A DNA stretch of 64,000 bases. Source: an uncultured virus (IMG/VR IMGVR_UViG_3300037400_006954) (taxonomy: Duplodnaviria > Heunggongvirae > Uroviricota > Caudoviricetes). Shown in pieces: positions 5,583-20,925 of the stretch; the first letter of the stretch is position 1, and each line of letters opens with the position of its first letter. The DNA lies in the IMG/VR virus record IMGVR_UViG_3300037400_006954; one strand, 5' to 3'. Both the position numbers and the translations under genes were made by a program. The notes under the pieces were generated by a model, which was not told where the DNA came from, made no database searches, and was given only the letters and a program-made list of their open reading frames with translations.

Positions 5583-6242
5583 TCAGTCCGCAAACTTCAG
5601 TATGTGGTACGCCCGCTCCACGTCTTCCTTGGTGAAGCCTTTCTTGTAGCTGGTGTGCACCACGTATCTTGGATCGAATACGGACAGTATGTCAGTGACC
5701 TCGTCGTCGATTATACAGAAGCTGTAGTCGACACCGCGTTTCCCGAATTTCTTCCTGTTGTTGTCCATCCAGGCCTTTATCTCGTGCCCCCTAAGCGTAT
5801 ATTCACTTATGCCATGGAGAATCATCTCCACGGTGGACAGCATCGGAGTCTGGCCTATGATCAGGTCTTCCGTCTTCTTGCCTACCCGCTCCGCCAGGAC
5901 GTCCCTCCACTTTGCCTGGAAGTCGAACGGCTCGTAGTCAACAAAATGCCTCCAGGAGGAAGATACCACTATCTTGGCGTCTGTCCTGTCTACGAGCTCC
6001 TTGAGGTTGGCCACGAGCTGAGGGTTCAGTCCGTATGCACGCTCATCCGAGCCTCCGCGGAAGTCCGGCCATACCTCGTGCCTGTTGTCGGGCATGCAGT
6101 TCATGACGCCGTCAATGTCGAGGAATATGATCGCCATCTTCTTCCTGGATTTGGTCTTTGCCGCCCTGGCGGTCCTGGACACCCTTGGTCTGGTTGCCGT
6201 CACAGGCTTTGCCTTGGCGCCTTTTGTCGCTTTGGTGCTCAT
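5583..6242 (-). CDS. HAD-family phosphatase of the type associated with RNA repair (HAD_SAK-like)
   Basis: Motifs IFLDIDGVMN, IVVSSSWR, RGHEIKAW, CIIDD, G(F)T. Confidence 0.8.
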   Translation of the reverse strand: MSTKATKGAKAKPVTATRPRVSRTARAAKTKSRKKMAIIFLDIDGVMNCMPDNRHEVWPDFRGGSDERAYGLNPQLVANLKELVDRTDAKIVVSSSWRHFVDYEPFDFQAKWRDVLAERVGKKTEDLIIGQTPMLSTVEMILHGISEYTLRGHEIKAWMDNNRKKFGKRGVDYSFCIIDDEVTDILSVFDPRYVVHTSYKKGFTKEDVERAYHILKFAD

Positions 6243-6298
6243 TGCGCCTCCTTTGAAAATAGCCCGCGGGCCGCAGCAGAGGCCCGCGGGCAAAACCT

Positions 6299-6838
6299 TT
6301 ACTTTACAGTGAACGCCTGCTTGATGTACACATAGGCGTCCCTGTCGTATTCGACCGTGGAACGTCTTGCGTCAGGCGCGCTATCCAAGTTGACGGGCTT
6401 GAACGTCGCCAGGAAGCCGTCCGAAAACCCGGAGACGGCAGCTGCGACAAGCTCCTCGTACTTCTTTGCCTTTGGATACCTTGTGAACAGATAGTCGACG
6501 CCTGTTGCGGCGACGGCGACGCCATTCACGATAAGGGCGGCCTGCCCCTGGTCGATCTTGCCGTCCTGGATGAGCTTGTCAGCGTACACCCTGGCGACAA
6601 CGGTCCACGCCTCCTGAAAGGTGTGTCCGTCTTCCGGAACAACGTCCTTGACGAGGGCGATGACCTCTATGATGGCGTTGCGCGACTTGTCGTCGATCTT
6701 GGTCTCGTTGGCGACGAGCCCGCTTGCACAGCCCACGGCGTATGCAGTGGACTTCATGACATCGACGGTTGGAACCGTCTTGCATCCAGAGAACGCGGCA
6801 ATAACGGCTGCCGCAGCCAGTGTCATTAGCTTCTTCAT
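6299..6838 (-). CDS. Putative lipoprotein
   Basis: MKKLMTLAAAAVIAAFSGC signal peptide/lipobox with its own AAGGA RBS; in frame with the upstream membrane ORF. Confidence 0.7.
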   Translation of the reverse strand: MKKLMTLAAAAVIAAFSGCKTVPTVDVMKSTAYAVGCASGLVANETKIDDKSRNAIIEVIALVKDVVPEDGHTFQEAWTVVARVYADKLIQDGKIDQGQAALIVNGVAVAATGVDYLFTRYPKAKKYEELVAAAVSGFSDGFLATFKPVNLDSAPDARRSTVEYDRDAYVYIKQAFTVK

Positions 6839-7126
6839 TTTGTTTTTTTCCTTTGTTTGTGTTGTACCGGATTTGACTCCGACATTGTCTGTCGCTGAAC
6901 CAGCCGTCCCGTCCTTTTTGTCTTTTCCGCAGCGCCTCCCTAATGCCACCGTCACGTATGCGGCGCATAGGTAGAACAGCGTGATAGGGACATAGAACGG
7001 TGACACGACCACCCACCAGCTGCAGTCGTCCGCAAGGCGAAGCAGCTTTAGGGCGATCAGTATGACTCCAAGCAGGACGAACCACAGATAGTTCGGTCCG
7101 CTTATAGTTGGACTGCCGTAGTACAT
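6839..7126 (-). CDS. Two-TM membrane segment (MYYGSPT...), open in frame into the downstream lipoprotein
   Basis: Hydrophobic LGVILIALKL...SWWVVVSPFY pattern; AGGAG RBS; no stop before 6838. Confidence 0.5.
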
Positions 7127-7134
7127 GTCTACTC

Positions 7135-8307
7135 CTACAGGAGTATGGACGCCCTGCTGTAGGCGTAGTCCCCGTTCCACGACCTGCTGGCCGTGAGCTC
7201 GACGATTGAAGGCGCTCCCGCTACGGGATTGTCCTCCGCGTCCTCCCCGGGCTCCTGTTCGAATACCGCTATCTTGTACACGCCGGTCTTGTCCGGGACT
7301 ATGTCGATGACGTTTACGCGGACGGTAGTCCACAACTCGTCCTTGCCGTTGAACTTCCTGGGGTCGATGGAGCGGCAGAACGTCATCTTCACCGTCCTGT
7401 CCCCCGGGTTCATCTGGACGTAGTTGCTGAAGCTCTCGCCGTCGCTGAACACGGCCGTGAACTTCAGCTTCTCGTATGAATGCACGTCGGTCCCTATGTT
7501 CAGGTCGTTGATGGTGTCGTCAACCGTCTCGCCGCTGTTGACCTCGCTGACCACCGCGGAGATGGAATCCCAGCTGACAGACCTAACGGCAAGCCTTGCC
7601 GTAAGCTTGTCCACGAAGTCCTCGTCGGCGGACATCTCGGGCTTGAGGTTGTCCATGAGGTACTCGTGTATCTCGTCCGGGGACGGCAGCGCCATCACGA
7701 AATGGTAGTATATCCTGCCGGGTCTGCCGAGCAGGTACTTGCTGAGGGAGTGGGAGTCGTTGACGGTGAGGAGTAGAAGCTTCTCCTGCTTGACCTCAAC
7801 CCCGTCGAAGAACGAAAGGGCCTTTTCCTGCTCCCTGATGTCGTTCTCCTCCGTTACGCCGACGTTTCCGTTTCCGTCGCTCTTGCCGCGGAACATCTTC
7901 TCGAACTCGTCGAACACAAGCACGCACCTTCCCTTGACGCTGGCCAATGTTGACAGCATCATTGGACCCAGGTTGCGCTTTATGATGATGACGGGGATGC
8001 TCTTGGAAAGGCTTACCGCCAGGTTCCGGACGAACAGGGACTTTCCGGTGCCCTTGTGCCCGGATACCAGGACGCCGAGGTTCCGCCCAACGGTCTCGTC
8101 GTACTTGCGGAGGACCTTCGCCGTCATGCGGGCCTGGTCTCCGTAGACCTTGCCGTTGAACGGCTCCAGGTCCGCGCTCTCGAACCATATGCCCCTCATC
8201 TCGGAGAACTTCATCTCGTAGACTCCGTTCGGCATGGTGTCCAGGACCTCCACGCCCTCGCCGTCTATCACCTGATAGGACGAGTCAAGTTTCAGTATTT
8301 TCTTCAT
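7135..8307 (-). CDS. AAA+ ATPase
   Basis: Walker A GHKGTGKS, Walker B LVFDEFEK, sensor TVN, RPGR arginine finger. Confidence 0.9.
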   Translation of the reverse strand: MKKILKLDSSYQVIDGEGVEVLDTMPNGVYEMKFSEMRGIWFESADLEPFNGKVYGDQARMTAKVLRKYDETVGRNLGVLVSGHKGTGKSLFVRNLAVSLSKSIPVIIIKRNLGPMMLSTLASVKGRCVLVFDEFEKMFRGKSDGNGNVGVTEENDIREQEKALSFFDGVEVKQEKLLLLTVNDSHSLSKYLLGRPGRIYYHFVMALPSPDEIHEYLMDNLKPEMSADEDFVDKLTARLAVRSVSWDSISAVVSEVNSGETVDDTINDLNIGTDVHSYEKLKFTAVFSDGESFSNYVQMNPGDRTVKMTFCRSIDPRKFNGKDELWTTVRVNVIDIVPDKTGVYKIAVFEQEPGEDAEDNPVAGAPSIVELTASRSWNGDYAYSRASILL

Positions 8308-8324
8308 TTTTGTTCCTTTCGTGT

Positions 8325-9075
8325 TGTTTGCCCTAAATGTCGTTCCACTTCACGCATGGTTGATTGCCATGCGCAACAGCAGGAACCTCTGCCCCGGAGC
8401 CGTTACATCCGCCTTGGCCCTCCGGGTGTGACTGGTGAACCGCGTCTCCGCGGCACGGGTGCCAGATTTCACAGCCATCCGCGCCAAATAGTACATGCGG
8501 ATCTGCTCACCGCATGAACCAGCATAGGTGGCGCTCCTCTCCCAGTCTGGGTTAACCTGCGTACATCCCTGCAATCATCCTGCACAAGCGGGGTCAAACC
8601 GAGGCGTATCGCAGCAGACGGGCAATAAGCGGTAAATTGAAACACTCCCTTTTGTACGCGGGGAAGGGAGATAACCCACTTGGCGGTCAATGCTTCTTAG
8701 CCGCGTTAGATCCAGGACCGTATGCTTCCCGGCCGCTAAGCCATTTATTTACAAGGTCGCGGAGCAACCGGAGACGACCTGCACCTTTTACATCCGTGCG
8801 GATGGGTTCCGGAGTTTAATGTTTGACGTCTCTCCGGTAAGACGCCCAGCGAATTCATCGCCATAAGCCACGCAGTTGTACCTCGGTGTGGTGCGTGGTC
8901 ACGATTTATCCGGATCAAGGACGTTTCCGCCCGAGCGAGGTCCTGACTCGTCATTTTACCCCGATCGCCGGGGCTGCGCTTGTACGTAGGCTTAAGGCCC
9001 CGATCGTCGGAACGGAGGAATCAAACCCCCAGCCACCAACATACAAGAGAATGCGATGCGAACCGGTCGGATCGC
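8325..9075 (-). ncRNA. Giant structured ncRNA, GOLLD-like candidate (boundaries approximate)
   Basis: ~700-750 nt with no credible ORF and many hairpins (e.g. ACCACGCA/UGCGUGG, AGGUCG/CGACCU, CUCCCUU/AAGGGAG, AUGCGG/CCGCAU, CGCAUGG/CCAUGCG). It lies at the end of a phage tRNA array, and its 3' part resembles my recollection of GOLLD. Not verified by covariance model. Confidence 0.55.
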
Positions 9076-9078
9076 ATC

Positions 9079-9378
9079 CTATATAGTGACGCTGTCGCCA
9101 ACCACCGCGGTTTCGTCGAAGCTGAACTGGATCTCCGTGAGAGCCTTGGCCACTGCAGCCGCAACGGCCTTCGCCAGCTTCTTGTCCCTGTCGTAGTGGT
9201 ATATGCTTGCGACATGGCAGACAGGGATCCCGTCCCTGTCGTATATGTTGTTCGTAGCCCTTCCGTACCAGAACGATCCAGGTCTGGAGTTTATGTTGGT
9301 GTACGGCCCCCTCAGGAGCCTGGGCACCATTGCGTACGGGTCTACGCGATCTGCAGGTTTTTCCGATCTTCCTTCCAT
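9079..9378 (-). CDS. Hypothetical protein
   Basis: ORF from MEGRSEK, immediately downstream of tRNA-Lys. Confidence 0.55.
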   Translation of the reverse strand: MEGRSEKPADRVDPYAMVPRLLRGPYTNINSRPGSFWYGRATNNIYDRDGIPVCHVASIYHYDRDKKLAKAVAAAVAKALTEIQFSFDETAVVGDSVTI

Positions 9379-9396
9379 GTGCTGCCCTTTCGTAGG

Positions 9397-9473
9397 TGGT
9401 AGACCGCCGGGGACTTGAACCCCGAACCCCGGGCTTAAGAGGCCCATGCTCTGACCAATTGAGCTAGCGGTCC
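9397..9473 (-). tRNA. tRNA-Lys(CTT)
   Basis: Cloverleaf, anticodon loop CTCTTAA, encoded CCA. Confidence 0.95.
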
Positions 9474-9672
9474 GTTTCATGTTAAATCCTTTCTGGCATG
9501 TCAATCCATCCCGTAGCCGTTCCACAGGGGATGATATATTCCGGTCTGGTTCTCCCTTTCGTAGTCGTCGGCGCGTTTCGCGTCTATTTCATCCTGCCAG
9601 GATGTATCCTCGGGCCTGCTGGGCCCGAACTTCTCCAGCTCCTCTACATTTCCCATAGCTCCTCCTTTCAGT

Positions 9673-9900
9673 CTAGTCGGTGTCTGTGAACATGACCCCT
9701 CTGCGCAGGGCCACGAATGCGTCTACCGCACGGTCCCTCTCGGAACCGCTTGTGCATGACATAAGCTTCACCAGGTAGTCCTCGAACTTGCGCTTGCTGC
9801 GGAAGCACAGCCAGGACCCGTAGGCCCTGAATCCGCATCTGCCTACCTTCTTGTCAGACATGATAGGCGTATTGTGCCCGTCTCCTTGCTGTTCGTTCAT
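9673..9900 (-). CDS. Hypothetical protein
   Basis: 75-aa ORF, AAAGGAG RBS. Confidence 0.6.
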   Translation of the reverse strand: MNEQQGDGHNTPIMSDKKVGRCGFRAYGSWLCFRSKRKFEDYLVKLMSCTSGSERDRAVDAFVALRRGVMFTDTD

Positions 9901-9916
9901 GTAAGGCTCCTTTCTT

Positions 9917-9993
9917 TGGTGGGGCTGCCGGGGATCGGACCCGGAACCTACAGTTTAGGAAACTGTCGCTCTGTCCAGTTGAGCTACAACCCC
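9917..9993 (-). tRNA. tRNA-Arg(CCT)
   Basis: Loop TTCCTAA, CCA; atypical T-loop TCCGATC. Confidence 0.9.
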
Positions 9994-9994
9994 G

Positions 9995-10070
9995 TGGTAG
10001 GGACGGAGGGATTCGAACCCTCATTGCTGGCTTCGTAGGCCATGAGTCTATCCAGTTAGCATACGCCCCC
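9995..10070 (-). tRNA. tRNA-Arg(ACG)
   Basis: Loop CTACGAA, CCA. Confidence 0.9.
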
Positions 10071-10072
10071 GT

Positions 10073-10151
10073 TGGGTCGCCGTGCAGGATTCGAACCTGC
10101 GGTTTCCTCGGTCACAACGAGGCGTCTTGACCTGGCTCGACTAACGGCAAC
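10073..10151 (-). tRNA. tRNA-His(GTG)
   Basis: Loop TTGTGAC, G-1:C73, CCA. Confidence 0.95.
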
Positions 10152-10161
10152 ACTGAAATCG

Positions 10162-10237
10162 TGGTGGCGACGGGTGGATTCGGACCACCGACCAACGCCT
10201 TATGAAGGCGCTGCACTAACCGCTGTGCTACGTCGCC
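10162..10237 (-). tRNA. tRNA-Met(CAT), elongator-like
   Basis: GGC acceptor start, loop TTCATAA, CCA; T-loop TCCGAAT. Confidence 0.85.
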
Positions 10238-10410
10238 TAAAATCTACCAGCGGTTCTCAGATGCTTTTAGCACATACTGTGCATCAACCGCAGCCACGGC
10301 ATCATAGGCTTTTGGATTCGACGTGCATATATCTCTTTCGAGCATCGCTTGCACCATTCATGCACGAAGTTTGGTTCTGCCTTACACGTTTCCTGCAAGG
10401 TGGAAAGTTA

Positions 10411-10486
10411 TGGTGGGCCGGAATGGGATCGAACCATTACCGTCGGATTTTCAGTCCGCTGTACACACCGTGTATACGACCGGCCC
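10411..10486 (-). tRNA. tRNA-Phe(GAA)
   Basis: Loop CTGAAAA, CCA. Confidence 0.9.
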
Positions 10487-10487
10487 T

Positions 10488-10565
10488 TGGTTGTCGTGGC
10501 TGGACTTGAACCAGCGAAATGCCGGTGTATCAGACCGGTGCGTTAACCAGCTTCGCCACACGACA
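10488..10565 (-). tRNA. tRNA-Ile(GAT)
   Basis: Loop CTGATAC, CCA. Confidence 0.9.
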
Positions 10566-10581
10566 ATGAAGATTGAAAAAT

Positions 10582-10822
10582 TGAGTCGGCCTGCGAGATC
10601 GCCTCGCAGTGCACACGGGTGCGCCGATCGCTAGAGGTGCGGCCCGTACCTAGGATAGTCCGCACTTATGACGCGCCTTAGCATACTGGCTTTCCCAGTC
10701 CTCCGTCGGGCTTCATCCGCCATCCTGGGTAGCCGTTTTCACTGGCATCCTGTGGCGTCTTGTATCCCGCGTGTGCAAGCTCCCGGCCATTTGCTTGGGC
10801 TTGCGGAACGTCTGCCGACTCG
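10582..10822 (-). ncRNA. Unidentified ~240-nt structured RNA
   Basis: Termini pair (GAGUCGGC/GCCGACUC); internal helices GCAAGC/GCUUGC, ACUGG/CCAGU, GUGCGG/CCGCAC, CUGCGAG/CUCGCAG; non-coding gap within the tRNA array. Confidence 0.55.
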
Positions 10823-10828
10823 AAACCG

Positions 10829-11197
10829 CTACTTCTTCCAGGTGACGAGAAAGTCCCAGAGATCGTCGATCGCGTCTATGCAGGCGTCGATGACGTGGAA
10901 CTTGCCGGTGTCGGTGAGCCTCTTCAGGGCCGCGAGGTAGTCCGACTCCTTGCCAGCGCCGTTGAGGCCGAGCGAGATGTGGGCGACGTAGCTTTCGTAT
11001 TTCTGCCCGTCGAACTTGCCCTTGACCTTCAGTACGCGGAAGGCGTACATCCTGTCCTTATTGGTGGATTTCGACTTTACCAGGGCCTTGATCTCCTTGG
11101 CCGCCGCCGACCTCGTGCTCACTACGGCATTGTCCACGTCGTCGAATTTCTTCTCGAGGTACGCGGCGCTGCCGAATACAATTCCTGTCTCTTTCAT
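10829..11197 (-). CDS. Hypothetical protein
   Basis: ORF from MKETG with AAGGA RBS. Confidence 0.7.
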   Translation of the reverse strand: MKETGIVFGSAAYLEKKFDDVDNAVVSTRSAAAKEIKALVKSKSTNKDRMYAFRVLKVKGKFDGQKYESYVAHISLGLNGAGKESDYLAALKRLTDTGKFHVIDACIDAIDDLWDFLVTWKK

Positions 11198-11235
11198 TGA
11201 ATTGTCCTTTTTTGTCTTTAGGTTACAGGTGACAG

Positions 11236-11311
11236 TGGCAGCCCCAACGGGATTCGAACCCATGTTACCCGGCTGAGAACCGGGTGTACTGGACCACTAT
11301 ACGATGAGGCC
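11236..11311 (-). tRNA. tRNA-Glu(CTC)
   Basis: Loop TTCTCAG, CCA. Confidence 0.9.
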
Positions 11312-11314
11312 ATT

Positions 11315-11392
11315 TGGCAGGGGCGAGGGGACTCGAACCCCCAGATTCCGCCTTGAAAGGGCAGTGACTGTAACCAGTTTGTCTACACCCCC
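11315..11392 (-). tRNA. tRNA-Glu(TTC)
   Basis: Loop CTTTCAA, CCA. Confidence 0.9.
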
Positions 11393-11428
11393 TGAAATCG
11401 TTGCTTTCCGTGCTTGTCCATAGCTATA

Positions 11429-11504
11429 TGGTTGGGGATTCAGGGCTCGAACCTGAAACCTTCTGGGTCAGAACCAGATGCTCTACCGATTGCGCTAATC
11501 CCCA
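11429..11504 (-). tRNA. tRNA-Gln(CTG)
   Basis: U1-A72, loop TTCTGAC, CCA. Confidence 0.9.
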
Positions 11505-11507
11505 GTA

Positions 11508-11589
11508 TGGTGCGCGATGAGGGACTCGAACCCCCACGCCGAAGCAGCGGAACCTAAATCCGCCGTGTCTGCCATTTCACCAATCGCGC
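11508..11589 (-). tRNA. tRNA-Leu(TAG)
   Basis: Long variable arm, loop TTTAGGT, CCA. Confidence 0.95.
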
Positions 11590-11622
11590 AGACGTACATA
11601 GTATAGCAAAGAGTTGCCTTAA

Positions 11623-11697
11623 TGGCGGGGTATGGCGGAGTCGAACCGCCCTGAGGAGATCGACAATCTCCCATACTAACCGATGTATGAATACCCC
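11623..11697 (-). tRNA. tRNA-Asp(GTC)
   Basis: Loop TTGTCGA, G73, CCA. Confidence 0.9.
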
Positions 11698-11772
11698 TGG
11701 TTGGGCCGGCGGGAATCGAACCCGCGTAGCCCCGATTAAAAGTCGGGTACATGGCCTCTCTGTCACGGCCCA
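11698..11772 (-). tRNA. tRNA-Lys(TTT)
   Basis: Loop CTTTTAA, CCA; abuts tRNA-Asp with no spacer. Confidence 0.85.
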
Positions 11773-11773
11773 A

Positions 11774-11865
11774 TGGCGGAAGGTACAGGATTTGAACCTG
11801 TGGGGGGATTGCTCCCCCGCCTCCTTAGCAAGGAGGTGCTTTAAGCCAAGCTCAGCCAACCTTCC
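11774..11865 (-). tRNA. tRNA-Ser(GCT)
   Basis: Long variable arm, loop TTGCTAA, CCA. Confidence 0.95.
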
Positions 11866-12614
11866 TACAGTTCGACTATGAAGTTGTGCCTGTATCCCGT
11901 TGTCTCCTTGTACGAGATGCTTTCGTACCCGTACGGATTCCTGACGTACCTGGTGTTGCCGAGCCGCATGTCCATGAAGTCATGGCAGTGCCCGTGTATC
12001 CACAGAGGCACGTCTATTGCGGCTATGTCGCCATGGGCCTTCTCCCCCATGACGTAGAACGCCTCGTTGACCTCGCTGTCCGCGTACTTCGGGTCGAGCA
12101 TCTCTATCCTTGGGGCGTGGTGCGTAACGACCACCGGAATCTCGCCGCGAGCCTTGCACGCGCCGACTTCGTCCTCGATCCACTTCAGGTTCTCCCAGAA
12201 GAGGTAGGTGCAGACATACGTGTCGAATCCGGGTATGTAGTTGTAGTCGTTGAGCGCCCTCCTGATCAGCTCGTTGTGCTGTATGGGCGTCCACATCGGA
12301 GAGCATATGAACGTCACGGTCCTGTCGCCGTCCTGCACCGACTCGACGAAGTTGTCCCTCTTGCAGGGCATCTCCAAGTCGTTGAAGTAGTGCATGGCGG
12401 TGTAGTAGTCGTGGTTCCCCTTTACTGCCACTATCCTCCCGAACTTGCCGCCCACGGCCTCTTCCAGGACCCTCCGTATCTCGTGCCAGTTGTCCCTGGT
12501 TCCCAGGTCGCCGGCCACGACCAGCACGTCCGCGGGCTCAAGGCTTCCGACGTCGAACGACTTAGGAAGCTCTCCGCCCGGGCAGTGCAGGTCGCTTACG
12601 ATGCTTATCTTCAT
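11865..12614 (-). CDS. Calcineurin-like metallophosphoesterase
   Basis: Motifs SDLH, AGD, GNHD, THHAP, HGHCH, NPYGY. Confidence 0.92.
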   Translation of the reverse strand: MKISIVSDLHCPGGELPKSFDVGSLEPADVLVVAGDLGTRDNWHEIRRVLEEAVGGKFGRIVAVKGNHDYYTAMHYFNDLEMPCKRDNFVESVQDGDRTVTFICSPMWTPIQHNELIRRALNDYNYIPGFDTYVCTYLFWENLKWIEDEVGACKARGEIPVVVTHHAPRIEMLDPKYADSEVNEAFYVMGEKAHGDIAAIDVPLWIHGHCHDFMDMRLGNTRYVRNPYGYESISYKETTGYRHNFIVEL

Positions 12615-12615
12615 G

Positions 12616-13797
12616 TCAGTCCTTCTGCTTGAGGAGGTATCTGTTGGACACCGCCTTGAAGCTTACGAACGGGCCGTCGTCGCAGGACTTGAACACAAGT
12701 CCCTCGCGCTCGTGGCCACGTGCGGTCTTACCCTCGGCGAACTTGAGCATCTCGTCCATGGACGTTATCTCGTCGAACACCTTCATGAACTTGTTGACTA
12801 CCGGGACATATGGGATGCCCAGGTCTTCGCACAGGTCCTGCGCGTGGCCTGGCATTAGGAACCACTGGTTCTTTATGTCCCATATCCTGAACACGTGCCA
12901 TTCGAACTCGGTGTACAGGTCGCGGTTGCCGTTGACTCCCGGACCGACCAGCTCTCCCTGGAACGCCAGTTCGGTGTGGCTCATCGCGTTTGCCTTGGCC
13001 AGCTTCTCACGAAGGCCGTACTTCTCGGCTACCTGCCAGGGCACCGGCGTCGCGCCGCTCTCCATCTTTGGCTTGAGCCTGAGATTGCGGGAGCAGACCC
13101 CGAACGGATTTTCCGGGTCCACTTCCGCGGACAGGAACACCGTTACGGAAGAGCCGTCGTTCTTCTCCGTCACCTCGAACGCCCTGCCCTTCATCTTCTC
13201 GAAGTAGTCCCCGAGGTTCTGGATGCGCTCCTCGTCGGTCTTAGGTATGAACTCCGACGGGAACTTGCCCATCGCGTCGGCGGAAACCGGATTGCCTCCC
13301 GACGCGGGCCTGAGGGCTTCGGCCACCTCGTCGTAGTGCTCAACCTTCAGAATCTTGGTGACGTCCGCCCCGACCAGGGGCTCAAGTGTGATGTCCATCC
13401 CCTCGCTCTCAGGGTCGCGCTTCAGGTACACGCCCTTGTCGTCCGACGTTATCCTGTCTGTGATCTCCTTGAACTGGTCTATCGGCATGAGCAGCCCCTG
13501 GGAGATGACTCCGCGGAGCTTGCATGTCTTTATCTTCAGGCCTTCCTTCAGCACCTGCCCGCTCTTCGAGACGAACTTCCTGAGGCACCTCTCCCTGAGG
13601 AACTCGTACCTGGGGTCGTCTGCCGGCAGGTAGCTGTCAATCTCGAAGTAGACGGCCCTGTCCCCGGGCTTGTACTCATCGCGTCCGGTGACTATCTTCC
13701 AGCCCTTGCCCACCATCGTAGCGACGGAGAGCCTGTCGGTATCCGGTATCGGATCGCACGTCGCGATCTCCACGACGCTTGCCAGCTTTCTTGACAT
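12616..13797 (-). CDS. ATP-dependent RNA ligase, DRB0094-type (N-terminal OB domain + nucleotidyltransferase)
   Basis: RKLASV...VYFEIDS...KLRGVISQGL OB domain; PKTDEERIQN, TEKNDGSS (motif I), QGELVGPG, REGLVFK, SFKAVSNRYLLK. Confidence 0.93.
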   Translation of the reverse strand: MSRKLASVVEIATCDPIPDTDRLSVATMVGKGWKIVTGRDEYKPGDRAVYFEIDSYLPADDPRYEFLRERCLRKFVSKSGQVLKEGLKIKTCKLRGVISQGLLMPIDQFKEITDRITSDDKGVYLKRDPESEGMDITLEPLVGADVTKILKVEHYDEVAEALRPASGGNPVSADAMGKFPSEFIPKTDEERIQNLGDYFEKMKGRAFEVTEKNDGSSVTVFLSAEVDPENPFGVCSRNLRLKPKMESGATPVPWQVAEKYGLREKLAKANAMSHTELAFQGELVGPGVNGNRDLYTEFEWHVFRIWDIKNQWFLMPGHAQDLCEDLGIPYVPVVNKFMKVFDEITSMDEMLKFAEGKTARGHEREGLVFKSCDDGPFVSFKAVSNRYLLKQKD

Positions 13798-17178: not shown

Positions 17179-17248
17179 GAGCGGGGCGTACTGTGGTGGG
17201 GGACGAAGTCCTCCGGTTGTTGTGAGATTATAGGAACGCCCTGTGCTC
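17179..17248 (-). ncRNA. GUUCCUA-stem RNA, copy H (short payload)
   Basis: GAGC-ACA-GGGCG-UUCC-UA ... UA-CGCCC-C-GCUC. Confidence 0.75.
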
Positions 17249-17255
17249 GAAAGAG

Positions 17256-17342
17256 CTGCGCGGGGAGTATGTCTACCTTACCAAGGTGGGCTTCAGGGAT
17301 TTTGGCCCCGAAGTATCCATAATAGGAACTCCCTGTGCGCGG
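17256..17342 (-). ncRNA. GUUCCUA-stem RNA, copy G (hairpin payload)
   Basis: GCGC-ACA-GGGAG-UUCC-UAU ... AUA-CUCCC-C-GCGC. Confidence 0.75.
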
Positions 17343-18209: not shown

Positions 18210-20108
18210 CTACGAGAACAGCTTTATCAGCGTGTCCTTCTCGAGCTTCGTGAGGTCAAGCCCCGGCTCGACGACCTTCTCCGGATTCTCCGGATCGACC
18301 GCCTTCTCGGGATCCCACACGGTAAATCCCGCGCGGAGCAGGATCTCCTTGAGCGGGACGAACCCCTCGGCGCGGGCCTTGATGCCCTCGATCACGTTCT
18401 CAGCGTACTTGCCGCCGACCGACACGCGGCCGCGGGCCGTGCCGAGGTCCATGAGCGTGAACCTGTCGTTCAGTATCACCCCGATGGACTTCTCGCCCTG
18501 CCCCTGGAAGTCGACCATGACGTCGAACTTGATCTTGTCGGGGTCTACCATCCTGCCCTTCGGCCAGCTCCTGTCGAACTTGTCGTTCGCGAAGAAGAAC
18601 CGGAACTTGGAGTCGTCGTCGCCGTTGAACTTGTTGAGCTTCACGATTCCGTCGGGGCAGGACTTGGCGATGTACAGCAGCTCCACCGCCTCCGGGTTGG
18701 CATTCGTCATGTCCCCGGAGTACACTACCTTGCTGCCGTCGCCGCTGTAGCCCCTGCCGAAACCATAGTACGCTGCGTTCCAGCCGATCTTGCCTCCGTC
18801 GATGCTGACCATGCTCAGGTCGTAGTCCCTGGTGCCCCATTCGTTGCGCCAGTATACTCCGACGATGTTGTCGCTGGTGAGCCTGAAGGACGTTCCGTAC
18901 GGGAAGTTCCCGACGAAGTTCTTCTCTGACGTGGGAAGGGCTATCTCGTAGTTCTCCGGGAACCTGACCGTGCAGGCCTTGTTCCTGATGGAGTCCACGA
19001 GCGACTCCTCGAACGCGAAGTACAGCTGGGACAGGCGGTCCTGGTCGTACTTGGGGGCATAGCCCTTGCGCACGAACATCTTGCCGTTCCTTATGATGTA
19101 CATCGAGTCCTCGGGCTTCCTGGCCATCCTCGACTTGAGGAGCATCATGATCCTGATCTTGCGCCAGGGATCCAGCTCTGGGAGCCTGTCGCGCACCTCC
19201 GAGACCGTGGCCTTGGAGGAAAGCAGGTTTTCCCAGAACCCCGGCTTCATCGGCCTGTGGTTCTTCGCCGCCAGCCTCCTGAGCTTGTTGATGACCGACG
19301 CCGTTGAGGCCGTCTTCATCGCCAGGAAGATCGGCTTGAACCTCAGGAAGATCCTGGACAGCCTCTCGAGCTGCCTGTCGGTCAGCGAGAGGAGCGGGGA
19401 CTTGGCCTTGCGGCGCTCGTCCTCGAACAGGCTGGTGCCGTACTTTATGTCCTGGAGCGCCTTTCTGCTCTTGATCACCATCGGCGACCCGCTGTACTTG
19501 AAGACCAGCGTCCTGAGCATGCCGAACTCGTCCGCGGGAAGGACCCCGGCCTTGTCGCTCAGGTACACCGTCGCCTCCCTGTTCTTGATCTCGGAGATCA
19601 GGTTGGAGAGGTCGTCCTTTGAAAGCTTCGAACCCTTCTTCTCGTACCAGAAGTCCGTCATGTCCTTCATCGTCCTCTCCTTGAGGGCGATTCCGGACTT
19701 GACGACCTCCATGCACTTCTCCGCAAGCTCGTCCTCAGAAATGGGCTCGAGAACCTGCATCTTCCTGAACGCGTCCGGCATGGGGTCGGAGTTCGGAACG
19801 TAGCCGTTGCCTTCCGGCTCCCTGCCCTCCTCAAGCTCCCCGTACGTCGTGGCGTAGTGGAGCAGCTGGTCCAGGAGCAGCTCCAGCCTGCTCTTGCTGA
19901 CGACGTCCTGCCACTCCTTGTAGAACGTCGCGTTGTGGTTCCTCGTAAGCGTCCTGAGCCACGCCTCGACGGACTTGTTGCAGCAGTCGGGGTGGACGAT
20001 CCAGCCCAGGGGGGCGGACACGGAGTTTACCTCCGAGAAGTCGACCTTCTCCGATGCGTCCGAGACCGGGCCCCGGCGGAAGTAGTCGATGATTGACGCG
20101 CTTGTCAT
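18210..20108 (-). CDS. 632-aa protein: helical N-terminal region + C-terminal TerD-like domain; candidate divergent Ro/TROVE-like RNA-binding protein
   Basis: C-terminal IVGVYW...DYDLS...GWN...YSGDMTNA...ELLYI matches the TerD pattern; N-terminal NATFYK.W...DQLLHYATTYG and helical, basic segments; directly downstream of the RNA array. Confidence 0.6.
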   Translation of the reverse strand: MTSASIIDYFRRGPVSDASEKVDFSEVNSVSAPLGWIVHPDCCNKSVEAWLRTLTRNHNATFYKEWQDVVSKSRLELLLDQLLHYATTYGELEEGREPEGNGYVPNSDPMPDAFRKMQVLEPISEDELAEKCMEVVKSGIALKERTMKDMTDFWYEKKGSKLSKDDLSNLISEIKNREATVYLSDKAGVLPADEFGMLRTLVFKYSGSPMVIKSRKALQDIKYGTSLFEDERRKAKSPLLSLTDRQLERLSRIFLRFKPIFLAMKTASTASVINKLRRLAAKNHRPMKPGFWENLLSSKATVSEVRDRLPELDPWRKIRIMMLLKSRMARKPEDSMYIIRNGKMFVRKGYAPKYDQDRLSQLYFAFEESLVDSIRNKACTVRFPENYEIALPTSEKNFVGNFPYGTSFRLTSDNIVGVYWRNEWGTRDYDLSMVSIDGGKIGWNAAYYGFGRGYSGDGSKVVYSGDMTNANPEAVELLYIAKSCPDGIVKLNKFNGDDDSKFRFFFANDKFDRSWPKGRMVDPDKIKFDVMVDFQGQGEKSIGVILNDRFTLMDLGTARGRVSVGGKYAENVIEGIKARAEGFVPLKEILLRAGFTVWDPEKAVDPENPEKVVEPGLDLTKLEKDTLIKLFS

Positions 20109-20145
20109 TGTTTTTTCTCCTTTTTTGTTGTTGAAGACGTAAAAT

Positions 20146-20202
20146 GCCGCGGGCCGTATGGATTCTTGGTGAAGAAGTTTTCATAGGAACGGCGGATGCG
20201 GC
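20146..20202 (-). ncRNA. GUUCCUA-stem RNA, copy F (short payload)
   Basis: GCCGC-AUCC-GCCG-UUCC-UAUG ... CAUA-CGGC-CC-GCGGC. Confidence 0.75.
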
Positions 20203-20216
20203 GACGTAAAAGGAAA

Positions 20217-20338
20217 TGCGCGGGACGTATAAAGGCGCTCTACCATCTGAGCTACCTAGAGAGGCGAGCCTCCCCGGGGTGGGATTCGAACCCACGACTT
20301 CCTGGTTGCGAGCCATTGATAGGAACGTCCTGTGCGCA
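20217..20338 (-). ncRNA. GUUCCUA-stem RNA, copy E, carrying a circularly permuted tRNA-like domain (YrlA-like)
   Basis: GCGC-ACA-GGACG-UUCC-UAU; T-arm GUGGG-UUCGAAU-CCCAC, then loop-closed acceptor, then D-arm GCUC-AGAUGGUA-GAGC; AUA-CGUCC-C-GCGC. Confidence 0.85.
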
Positions 20339-20343
20339 AAGGG

Positions 20344-20426
20344 AATCGGCGAACGGTAGTATCGGGCCGGGCCTTTCACCCCGGCGTTGTTCTTGTTTGT
20401 CTGATAGGAACCGTATGTGCCGATTT
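20344..20426 (-). ncRNA. GUUCCUA-stem RNA, copy D
   Basis: AAUCGGC-ACAU-ACGG-UUCC-UAUC ... GAUA-CU-ACCGU-UC-GCCGAUU with internal GCCGGG/CCCGGC hairpin. Confidence 0.7.
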
Positions 20427-20435
20427 AAATCGAAC

Positions 20436-20561
20436 CTGCCTGCGGGCCGTATGCAGTGCTCTACCATTGAGCTACGCGGTCCAGCGGCCGCGGCGGGGGT
20501 CGAACCCGCGTCCATTCATGAACAGTGAATTTTTTGCATTAGGAACGGCGTGTGCAGACAG
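20436..20561 (-). ncRNA. GUUCCUA-stem RNA, copy C, carrying a circularly permuted tRNA-like domain (YrlA-like)
   Basis: CUGC-ACAC-GCCG-UUCC-UA; T-arm GCGGG-UUCGACC-CCCGC, then CGCGG/CCGCG closed acceptor, then D-arm GCUC-AAUGGUA-GAGC; UA-CGGC-CC-GCAG. Confidence 0.85.
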
Positions 20562-20575
20562 CTGCTGGAAAATGG

Positions 20576-20690
20576 CGAGGCGACGGGTATCGGTTGGGGA
20601 CGCGGGAGTCGAACCCGCTGCTTCCGGCCCTTCAGGCCGGCGGTCTGCCGGTGACCTAGTCCTCGGGAATTAGGAACCCGATGTGCCTCG
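20576..20690 (-). ncRNA. GUUCCUA-stem RNA, copy B, enclosing a non-permuted tRNA-like cloverleaf (GAA loop)
   Basis: CGAGGC-ACAU-CGGG-UUCC-UA; D-arm GGUC/GACC, arm CCGGC-CUGAAGG-GCCGG, T-arm GCGGG-UUCGACU-CCCGC; AUA-CCCG-UC-GCCUCG. Confidence 0.8.
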
Positions 20691-20707
20691 GTTTAAAGCG
20701 ACTAAAA

Positions 20708-20762
20708 GGCGGGCCGTATGGTTGATTTCCAGTCAAGCGTATGATAGGAACGGCCTGTGCCC
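20708..20762 (-). ncRNA. GUUCCUA-stem RNA, copy A (short payload)
   Basis: GGC-ACA-GGCCG-UUCC-UAU ... AUA-CGGCC-C-GCC. Confidence 0.75.
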
Positions 20763-20925
20763 GTGTAAATCTAGAAGGCTCCTTTCTGCGACACGAAAGG
20801 GTAAACAAACGCAGCTTTTACGGATCGTCTCGGTCAGGAGCCATGGATCCCGAGTGCGGGGGAATCGGAAACCCCGCAAGTTATTGTTTCAACCAAATCC
20901 AGTTTTCAAAGATCAACTGGCAGAT

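Follow-up and report, generated by a model that had tools for sequence, protein, structure and literature searches.

Y RNAs are small RNAs in which one end docks a protein and the other picks the target, and to our knowledge Y RNAs of tRNA-like form have so far been tied to the protein Ro60. Members of the YrlA class, as characterised in passages of Wang et al. 2018 (10.1101/312249), carry the T-arm 5' of the D-arm, have a sealed acceptor and pair their ends in a long stem; for the 5' strand of YrlA, a section of Chen et al. 2014 (PMC4201824) proposes the Rsr/Ro60 site motif GNCGAAN0-1G. The other close comparison is the circularly permuted tRNA gene, known from Cyanidioschyzon merolae, some other algae and archaea according to work cited in part of 10.1101/312249. 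Here we describe a locus in an uncultured virus of the Caudoviricetes (IMG/VR record IMGVR_UViG_3300037400_006954), of which a stretch of 64,000 nucleotides was analysed (the whole stretch is called the window). Its minus strand encodes eight modules closed by a common handle, and six of these (u1 to u6) stand in tandem in the intergenic region 20120-20800, with two short conserved blocks in common, upstream of the gene for a protein that we call P0001. We give a probability of roughly one half to the reading that the modular array RNA and P0001 form a ribonucleoprotein that works like a Y RNA particle without Ro60 and presents parts of tRNA, a reading in which we infer both the binding of P0001 to the RNA and a role as decoy or adaptor.

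Modules u2 and u4 come closest to the described systems. The initial annotation had claimed tRNA arms in swapped order for both copies, with an acceptor-like hairpin that is sealed by a loop and lacks CCA between T-arm and D-arm, and this was borne out on the minus strand with arm sequences and coordinates as claimed. Read 5' to 3', both run T-arm, loop-closed acceptor, UA, D-arm:

20218..20337, minus strand: module u2, handle plus permuted tRNA-like payload (sequence, scanner, YrlA core match, minimum-free-energy (MFE) fold, RNA-library contigs)
20279-20295, minus strand: u2 T-arm, GUGGG-UUCGAAU-CCCAC (sequence)
about 20255-20278, minus strand: u2 acceptor-like hairpin of 7 positions, loop-closed, without CCA (sequence)
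20237-20252, minus strand: u2 D-arm, GCUC-AGAUGGUA-GAGC, preceded by a UA linker (sequence)
20440..20557, minus strand: module u4, handle plus permuted tRNA-like payload (sequence, scanner, YrlA core match, folds)
20493-20509, minus strand: u4 T-arm, GCGGG-UUCGACC-CCCGC (sequence)
20475-20492, minus strand: u4 closed acceptor hairpin of 5 bp (sequence)
20458-20472, minus strand: u4 D-arm, GCUC-AAUGGUA-GAGC, preceded by UA (sequence)

By reading, both copies also hold the elbow nucleotides (a D-loop GG, T-loop UUC and A58, and a pyrimidine directly before the T-stem), and u4 has in addition a small anticodon-arm-like hairpin with a CUGUUCA loop. ARAGORN detected no ordinary tRNA at u2 or u4, so neither is a junction between two tRNAs. 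The RNAalifold consensus of eight homologous permuted units, taken from the window and from loci L009, L010, L012 and L013, contains the two handle stems P1 and P2, the T-arm, the acceptor hairpin and the D-arm, with compensatory changes in 14 of its 23 pairs.

Assignment of these RNAs to the YrlA class, as the initial annotation had it, proved right for the topology but is not supported for the membership. The arm order, the loop-closed acceptor, the UA linker, the elbow nucleotides and the ends paired in a long stem are all there. With the YrlA model (RF02553), cmsearch scored 30.8 bits for u2 (20232-20303, E 2e-4) and 34.9 bits for u4 (20457-20514, E 1.4e-5; 1.2 kb searched), about half of the gathering score of 69 or less, and matched the tRNA-like core only: the alignment spans model positions 23-86 of 114 in the order T-arm, closed stem, D-arm, and the stem part is unmatched. 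The best score in relatives was 40.4 bits, with no match over the cut-off in five whole records. Sub-threshold matches of this kind also turn up in 9 of the 14 genomes used as controls, among them E. coli and B. subtilis, and are therefore no evidence of membership.

It seems quite improbable that u2 and u4 are genuine Y RNAs of the YrlA type and act through a host Ro60/Rsr. Beside the low and non-specific scores, a search of 20120-20800 for the one-N form of the Rsr site (GNCGAANG) came back empty for the minus strand, which is the array's RNA strand (the zero-N form was not part of the search). A section of Chen et al. 2014 (PMC4201824) does report YrlA-like RNAs in Ro60-encoding phages, and a TROVE gene is present in Bacteroides thetaiotaomicron, a relative of some likely hosts; these points, with the same topology and the conserved T and D arms, speak for a host Ro60. 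No TROVE/Ro60 domain was found in 98 window frames, which included all 83 open frames of at least 220 residues (the window being part of a 136-kb contig), nor in five whole related phage records (223-424 kb, four of them at least 98% complete), and the controls D. radiodurans and B. thetaiotaomicron were positive. Moreover, the stem of u2 and u4 is a different handle, which is shared with payloads that are not tRNA-like and is linked to P0001.

The likeness to the YrlA-Ro60 system thus lies in the general plan: a modular small RNA with ends paired in a long stem that has conserved unpaired nucleotides, a distal permuted tRNA body, and RNA genes, sometimes several in tandem, that adjoin the gene of the presumed protein partner. 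In the phage, by contrast, the stem has another conserved motif (A-N-A/C bulge, UUCCUA...AUA), the neighbouring protein consists of a helical N-terminal part and a TerD-like domain, and the handle carries many payloads other than elbows, forms arrays of up to 10 and occupies slots in tRNA arrays. By analogy, we would file the array as Y-RNA-particle-like in its working and not as a YrlA member. A literature search returned no description of the handle or of the protein family, the supplementary phage YrlA tables of Chen et al. 2014 being outside that search.

On the RNA strand, each unit is ordered P1, A-N-A, P2, UUCCUA, payload, AUA, P2', C, P1'. P1 has ~5 bp, the A-N-A bulge lies opposite the single C, and P2 has 5 bp of which the last is G-C, with GC-A-N-A-NNNNG-UUCCUA as the consensus of the 5' strand. 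The GUUCCUA that had been annotated as replacing the anticodon arm is present in u2 and u4, but it is no simple replacement, as it belongs to the bipartite closing stem that all eight window modules have in common. Two of the eight payloads are permuted tRNA heads (u2, u4), one is a whole tRNA-like unit (u5) and five are hairpins. The handle matched no family in an Rfam scan at E up to 10. The other six modules are as follows, where R1 is a covariance model of the handle whose construction is given further below:

20147..20201, minus strand: module u1, handle with a hairpin payload of 24 nt; the P0001 start codon follows 38 nt downstream (scanner; R1 44.6 bits, E 1.5e-9)
20345..20424, minus strand: module u3, handle with irregular P2' plus GC-rich hairpin payload (R1 31.3 bits, E 6.5e-6; not called by the strict scanner)
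20578..20688, minus strand: module u5, handle round a whole, normally ordered tRNA-like unit (ARAGORN, 47.3 bits, scanner)
20707..20762, minus strand: module u6, handle plus 25-nt payload, an anticodon-arm-like hairpin UUGA-CUGGAAA-UCAA (scanner; R1 45.5 bits, E 8e-10)
17258..17340, minus strand: module between tRNA-Thr and tRNA-Pro, 52-nt payload (scanner; R1 28.2 bits)
17179..17248, minus strand: module between tRNA-Thr and tRNA-Pro, 39-nt payload (scanner; R1 28.1 bits)

Even with filters off, R1 misses the long-payload modules u2, u4 and u5, which rest on the pattern scanner. Unconstrained MFE folds recovered P1 and P2 in nearly all of 17 modules, the exception being u5. The core of u5 is called tRNA-Phe (gaa) by ARAGORN (20592-20665, minus strand) and scores 47.3 bits with the Rfam tRNA model; two of its acceptor pairs are non-standard, P2 and P1 enclose both its ends, and its anticodon stem can be extended into the loop. 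This call is probably a mimic and not a decoding tRNA, a caution with regard to automatic tRNA calls. An ordinary tRNA-Phe(gaa) was called by ARAGORN at 10411-10486.

Two other identities of the handle were considered and rejected. It resembles a T-arm in its 5-bp P2 closed by G-C and in a loop that opens with UUC and ends A-U-A, but as a tRNA T-arm or acceptor-T minihelix it fails, with an invariant C instead of a purine as fourth loop base, a P1 of only ~5 positions in place of a 7-bp acceptor, and bulges that set P1 apart from P2. Nor is it a bulge-helix-bulge (3-4-3) motif: the central helix has 5 bp, and there are an extra unpaired C and UUCCUA. Eight single sites from the first motif scan of viral contigs (GTTCCTA...ATACGGCCCGC; L001-L008) were without the upstream half of the handle and were taken as chance.

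Relatives of the locus were retrieved through the protein. As a single query, P0001 found no relative among viral contigs, but an alignment of 32 P0001 homologues (A1) retrieved 28 viral loci, 23 of them distinct. Upstream of P0001 homologues stands the same handle, as one copy or as an array of at most 10, whether the genome is rich in GC or in AT, and its loop nucleotides are invariant over genomes of 27% to 58% GC (variant handles with UUCCUC and UUCUUA occur in L110 and L097). In an alignment of 28 short-payload modules (A2), for which the scanner had pre-required 4/5 P2 pairs and 3/4 P1 pairs, 95.5% of cells were paired versus 38-53% with the 3' partner slid, the covariation score was 0.855 versus 0.232 when shuffled, and both sides had changed in 10 of 11 pairs. 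Two flank pairs that lay outside the scanner's selection were paired in 19/28 and 26/28 rows.

The covariance model R1 was built from A2 and applied to 38 loci that had been obtained independently via the protein, all on contigs of metagenome-assembled genomes (MAGs) labelled Fibrobacter, Bacteroidales, Paludibacteraceae, Treponema, Muribaculaceae and, in one bin, Methanobacterium. The 40 distinct rows from MAG loci outside model building (A5) were 98.0% paired versus 34-49% slid, with a covariation score of 0.733 versus 0.192. Across 146 distinct modules, base pairs 3-5 of P1 were formed in 96%, 95% and 82%, and pairing then drops to 53% and 47%, from which we take P1 to be ~5 bp long. The handle is a genuine structured RNA family.

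That the repeats act instead at the DNA level, as sites of recombination or protein binding, or that their likeness is due to chance, is hardly credible. They are, it is true, short direct repeats in an intergenic region, but compensatory changes preserve their pairing, G-U pairs occur in the RNA sense only (A2, A5), all structure-model matches and nearly all strict-scanner calls fall on the strand of the gene, and u2 is covered by contigs from RNA libraries.

The top-scoring handle match of all (59.8 bits) lies at L095 2836-2946, plus strand, together with a second module and a P0001 homologue. Its 170-kb contig was binned as a Methanobacterium MAG from palsa: either the bin took in a phage by error, or the system also occurs in an archaeal virus.

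The permuted topology also invites comparison with permuted tRNA genes, with which u2 and u4 share the 3' half before the 5' half, the loop-closed acceptor and the paired ends. If they were true permuted genes, the handle would be excised, the ends joined (e.g., by the RNA ligase encoded at 12616-13797) and the acceptor unsealed at its loop, so that a decoding tRNA results. Pre-tRNAs of this kind, with closed acceptor and paired ends, are found in some algae and an archaeon (as stated in part of 10.1101/312249), genes for an RNA ligase and a phosphoesterase lie in the window along with a HAD repair domain, and u4 and L012_3825 have a hairpin with a 7-nt CUGUUNA loop upstream of the T-arm. We nonetheless consider this very improbable. 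The acceptor hairpins vary from ~5 to 9 bp among homologues, with no fixed 7, and by reading, end-joining would leave ~10-20 extra nt between D-arm and anticodon hairpin, which gives no canonical tRNA. The handle lacks the 3-4-3 bulge-helix-bulge, as noted above, and encloses payloads that are not tRNA-like; in the RNA-library contigs, which are weak evidence here, no joint was seen.

By position, the modules are linked to one gene:

18210..20108, minus strand: P0001, 632 residues, the proposed handle partner (open reading frame, profile and fold searches)

Starting from the protein, a same-strand module was present within 800 nt upstream of P0001 in 21 of 23 distinct viral loci. The opposite strand of the same loci gave no module match, and control sequence elsewhere in them gave two matches in 351 kb, both true modules beside tRNAs. 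In the MAG set, R1 found 44 matches in 35 of 38 loci, all on the gene strand and all flanking P0001, and the strict scanner found an upstream module in 27 of 38 and a downstream one in five more (L087-L090 and L093). Starting from the RNA, a handle-only pattern returned 50 stretches of viral contigs (not de-duplicated), 46 of them with P2 paired in at least 4/5 positions; a P0001 homologue lay within 3 kb of 27 of these 46 modules. The 19 orphans included 14 in loci with at least three same-strand tRNA genes and five without nearby tRNA, and many were wedged between two tRNA genes (e.g., tRNA-Asp, module, tRNA-Asp) with spacers of ~6-15 nt. Five orphan records were searched whole, of which two contain P0001 elsewhere and two are small fragments.

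The link between module and P0001 is independent of tRNA arrays, since 19 of 33 tRNA-scanned loci have both and no tRNA gene within the available 6-10 kb. Gene-family sharing points the same way: all 38 loci have P0001, and no other real family is present in more than eight. Given the protein-first, RNA-first and gene-sharing counts, the conserved unit is P0001 plus at least one module, and extra modules fill slots in tRNA arrays. Whole records of five relatives held 5-7 short-payload modules each (R1), some of them >100 kb from P0001.

An explanation that we regard as unlikely, yet worth setting out, is that the handle is a cis-acting cassette, i.e., a processing or stability clamp for release of the payload by tRNA-processing RNases of the host or, in the P0001 leader, a translational or attenuation operator, with P0001 merely the regulated gene. 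The position of the modules fits this: of 23 viral loci, 21 have their gene-proximal module closing some tens of nucleotides ahead of the start codon, and in the window no terminator match separates the two; UUCCU is, by reading, complementary to AGGAA-type ribosome-binding sites upstream of P0001, and a U-run often follows P1. Among the orphans, the 14 of 19 loci with at least three same-strand tRNA genes are also in keeping with it, and many wedged modules could be released by tRNA processing alone. An operator in the 5' leader is impossible, however, in L087-L090 and L093, where the module lies directly 3' of the P0001 stop codon (in L087 and L088 this downstream module has a permuted tRNA head and a terminal U-run). 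Tandem arrays of 4-10 modules and copies >100 kb from P0001 are likewise not leader elements, and loop nucleotides that stay invariant from 27% to 58% GC suggest a specific recognition partner.

P0001 belongs to a large family without a name. Of at least 797 homologues, not one has an informative name or a Pfam domain. Clustered at 50% identity, the family amounts to 1,581 clusters when E may reach 0.001, and to 1,084 when the limit is set at 1e-30. Searches of Pfam, PHROGs and NCBIfam with P0001 gave no family, and a sequence search of the PDB gave no match with either the single sequence or a profile. The AlphaFold2 model (predicted local distance difference test (pLDDT) 81.8, predicted template-modelling score (pTM) 0.81) places a TerD-like beta-sandwich at residues 409-576, which aligns over 131 residues with 2qz7_B (Z 10.1) and over 134 with 2kxt (Z 9.2), both at a root-mean-square deviation of 3.3; the first unrelated structure follows at Z 5.6. 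At the sequence level, Pfam TerD has no match in P0001. The predicted beta-sandwich is thus shared with the TerD family (2qz7, 2kxt), whereas its fusion to a helical region of ~400 residues is not; this N-terminal part, folded alone, reached pLDDT 78.4 and pTM 0.56. Foldseek against the PDB returned no row at E <= 0.001 (the top rows, TM under 0.13, are noise), and the ESM Atlas returned unnamed viral clusters only and pointed weakly to TerD and to a RING-domain family of bacteria. Ro60 itself combines a HEAT-repeat ring (TROVE) with a vWA domain after it; for P0001 the fold searches list no Ro60, the C-terminal domain is TerD-like and not vWA, and no TROVE or vWA signal was found. Residues 241-400 carry a net charge of +10 to +21 in 32 of 32 homologues, the other segments being neutral or acidic, which would fit a nucleic-acid-binding surface.

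With regard to expression, the array is preceded by one promoter-like site, and no minus-strand terminator match was found between this site and P0001:

20926..20954, minus strand: sigma-70-like promoter TTGCAA-17-TATAAT upstream of the array (consensus match only)

Three RNA-library runs from two studies each yielded one short contig (151-174 nt) over u2: X22 (20200-20373), X23 (20222-20391) and X24 (20208-20341). X24 continues after 20208-20341 with 17 letters that resemble a sequencing adapter, which we presume them to be, so that the end of the insert may lie 4 nt beyond the module. One DNA run covers the whole stretch evenly. These contigs faintly hint that u2 may be an abundant, discrete RNA.

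The stretch 20765-20920 (minus strand), between the promoter-like site and the first module, is structured as well: it holds a hairpin GCGGGG-UUUCCGAUU-CCCCCGC, and also an inverted repeat whose 16-nt arms are 20777-20792 and 20827-20842. In the AT-rich loci L017-L021 and L024-L031, a conserved TTTACTATATTTAA-like box stands ~20-25 nt upstream of the single module and is possibly a phage promoter that starts the transcript at the foot of P1.

Payloads were surveyed over the 146 distinct modules. A T-arm is present in 20, and 11 of these have a D-arm as well, being either permuted heads or whole bodies of tRNA-like form; a GCAA tetraloop caps the anticodon stem of such a whole body in L052, L059, L063 and L067. 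A further 13 payloads have an anticodon-arm-like hairpin only (e.g., UUGA-CUGUUAA-UCAA). Overall, tRNA-like hairpins with 7-nt loops occur in 29 of 146 payloads versus 4.0 expected from shuffles. Judged from their sequences, the tRNA-like payloads as they stand would be neither chargeable nor decoding. A function as antisense guides was considered and rejected, as the longest complements of five payloads elsewhere in the window measured 9-11 nt versus shuffled means of 9.7-11.1.

Some patterns recur among the other payloads. UAGGAA or UAGG is found in the single-module loci L017, L027, L028, L031, L018, L019, L024 and L029, where it can pair with UUCCUA or CCUA of the handle, and many short payloads share UGGAU...AAGAAAA before AUA. 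Payloads that we count as unclassified are therefore not random.

In the ribonucleoprotein reading that we favour, the locus would specify small modular RNAs in an array whose transcription is probably shared with P0001, each RNA made of a constant bipartite handle and an exchangeable payload. Many of the payloads would be tRNA pieces or bodies, i.e., permuted elbows with sealed acceptors, bodies with capped anticodon stems, lone T-arms and anticodon-arm-like hairpins. A protein of the P0001 family would bind the handle through its conserved basic segment, so that the handle docks the protein as in a Ro60-Y RNA particle, here with no Ro60. The tRNA-like payload could then engage host or phage proteins that recognise tRNA shape, which would be sequestered or recruited; modification and processing enzymes are candidate targets, as are tRNA-cutting defence nucleases. 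For the tRNA-like heads, a role as decoy or recruiter is plausible.

Several observations weigh against this reading. Direct binding of the handle by P0001 is presumed from gene adjacency and charge, and TerD domains are not known to us as RNA binders, nor do we know of anything else that ties TerD to RNA. For the N-terminal part of P0001, the best structural match was a generic helical hairpin (Z 7.6), which is uninformative. No module was detected at two of 23 viral P0001 loci (L014, L033) or, with R1, at three of 38 MAG loci, and a module without P0001 is found in a 35-kb record with a completeness rating of 97%. The modules of A2 were pre-selected for pairing and the rows of A5 were fitted to the model, so that both alignments lean towards structure. 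The RNA-library contigs give no strand, ends or level, may contain DNA and cover only u2. Finally, tRNA mimicry may not be the general function of the payloads, considering that 113 of 146 are short, unclassified and without any scored tRNA-like signature.

If the ribonucleoprotein reading is right, the locus presents the Y RNA design on a different handle and, by synteny, with a different and very common uncharacterised phage protein. It would offer a first functional lead for the P0001 family and would explain why tRNA arrays of large phages have "extra" slots of tRNA size. A wider proposal, which we advance tentatively and at well under even odds, is that large gut and rumen phages possess a widespread Ro60-independent counterpart of Y RNA built around a protein family of at least 1,500 clusters that would dock on one universal handle, in which arrays of interchangeable payloads (tRNA elbow, anticodon arm, T-arm or whole anticodon-less tRNA) among the tRNA genes would serve as RNA-based counter-defence by trapping or redirecting readers of tRNA shape, notably tRNA-cutting defence nucleases. 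Should the payloads indeed act on tRNA-recognising enzymes or nucleases, they would constitute a new phage countermeasure and a natural scaffold for RNA shapes.

The window is a portion of a large phage-like genome, and the contig with P0001 has 136,079 bases. A domain scan identified the replication genes of a family A DNA polymerase, a DnaB-like helicase and a primase zinc finger in the window, and ARAGORN called 28 tRNAs, all on the minus strand. The DNA of the window recurs chiefly in bovine gut metagenome runs, and a blastn search of GenBank phages with the array gave no match. RNA-repair genes lie amid the tRNA genes at 5583-13797 (minus strand), and the domain scan gave the following features there:

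12616-13797, minus strand: RNA ligase with PHA02142 OB domain
11865-12614, minus strand: metallophosphoesterase
7135-8307, minus strand: AAA ATPase
5583-6293, minus strand: HAD_SAK_2 "Swiss Army Knife" repair domain

Related loci held further unusual RNA features. A Hatchet ribozyme match (81.4 bits, gathering score 51) lies at L022 460-597, plus strand, ~1.1 kb upstream of the modules, and the same locus has an ARAGORN tRNA-like gene with a four-base anticodon (tttt) at 5660-5751. Two-base anticodons (ca, tc) appear in ARAGORN tRNA-like genes of L052, L059, L067, L080, L082 and L066. An A in the first anticodon position was seen in the tRNA calls Cys aca, Asn att, Ile aat and Thr agt, the sites of such calls being L013 1024-1096 and 3780-3852, L031 9518-9600 and L062 2922-2995.

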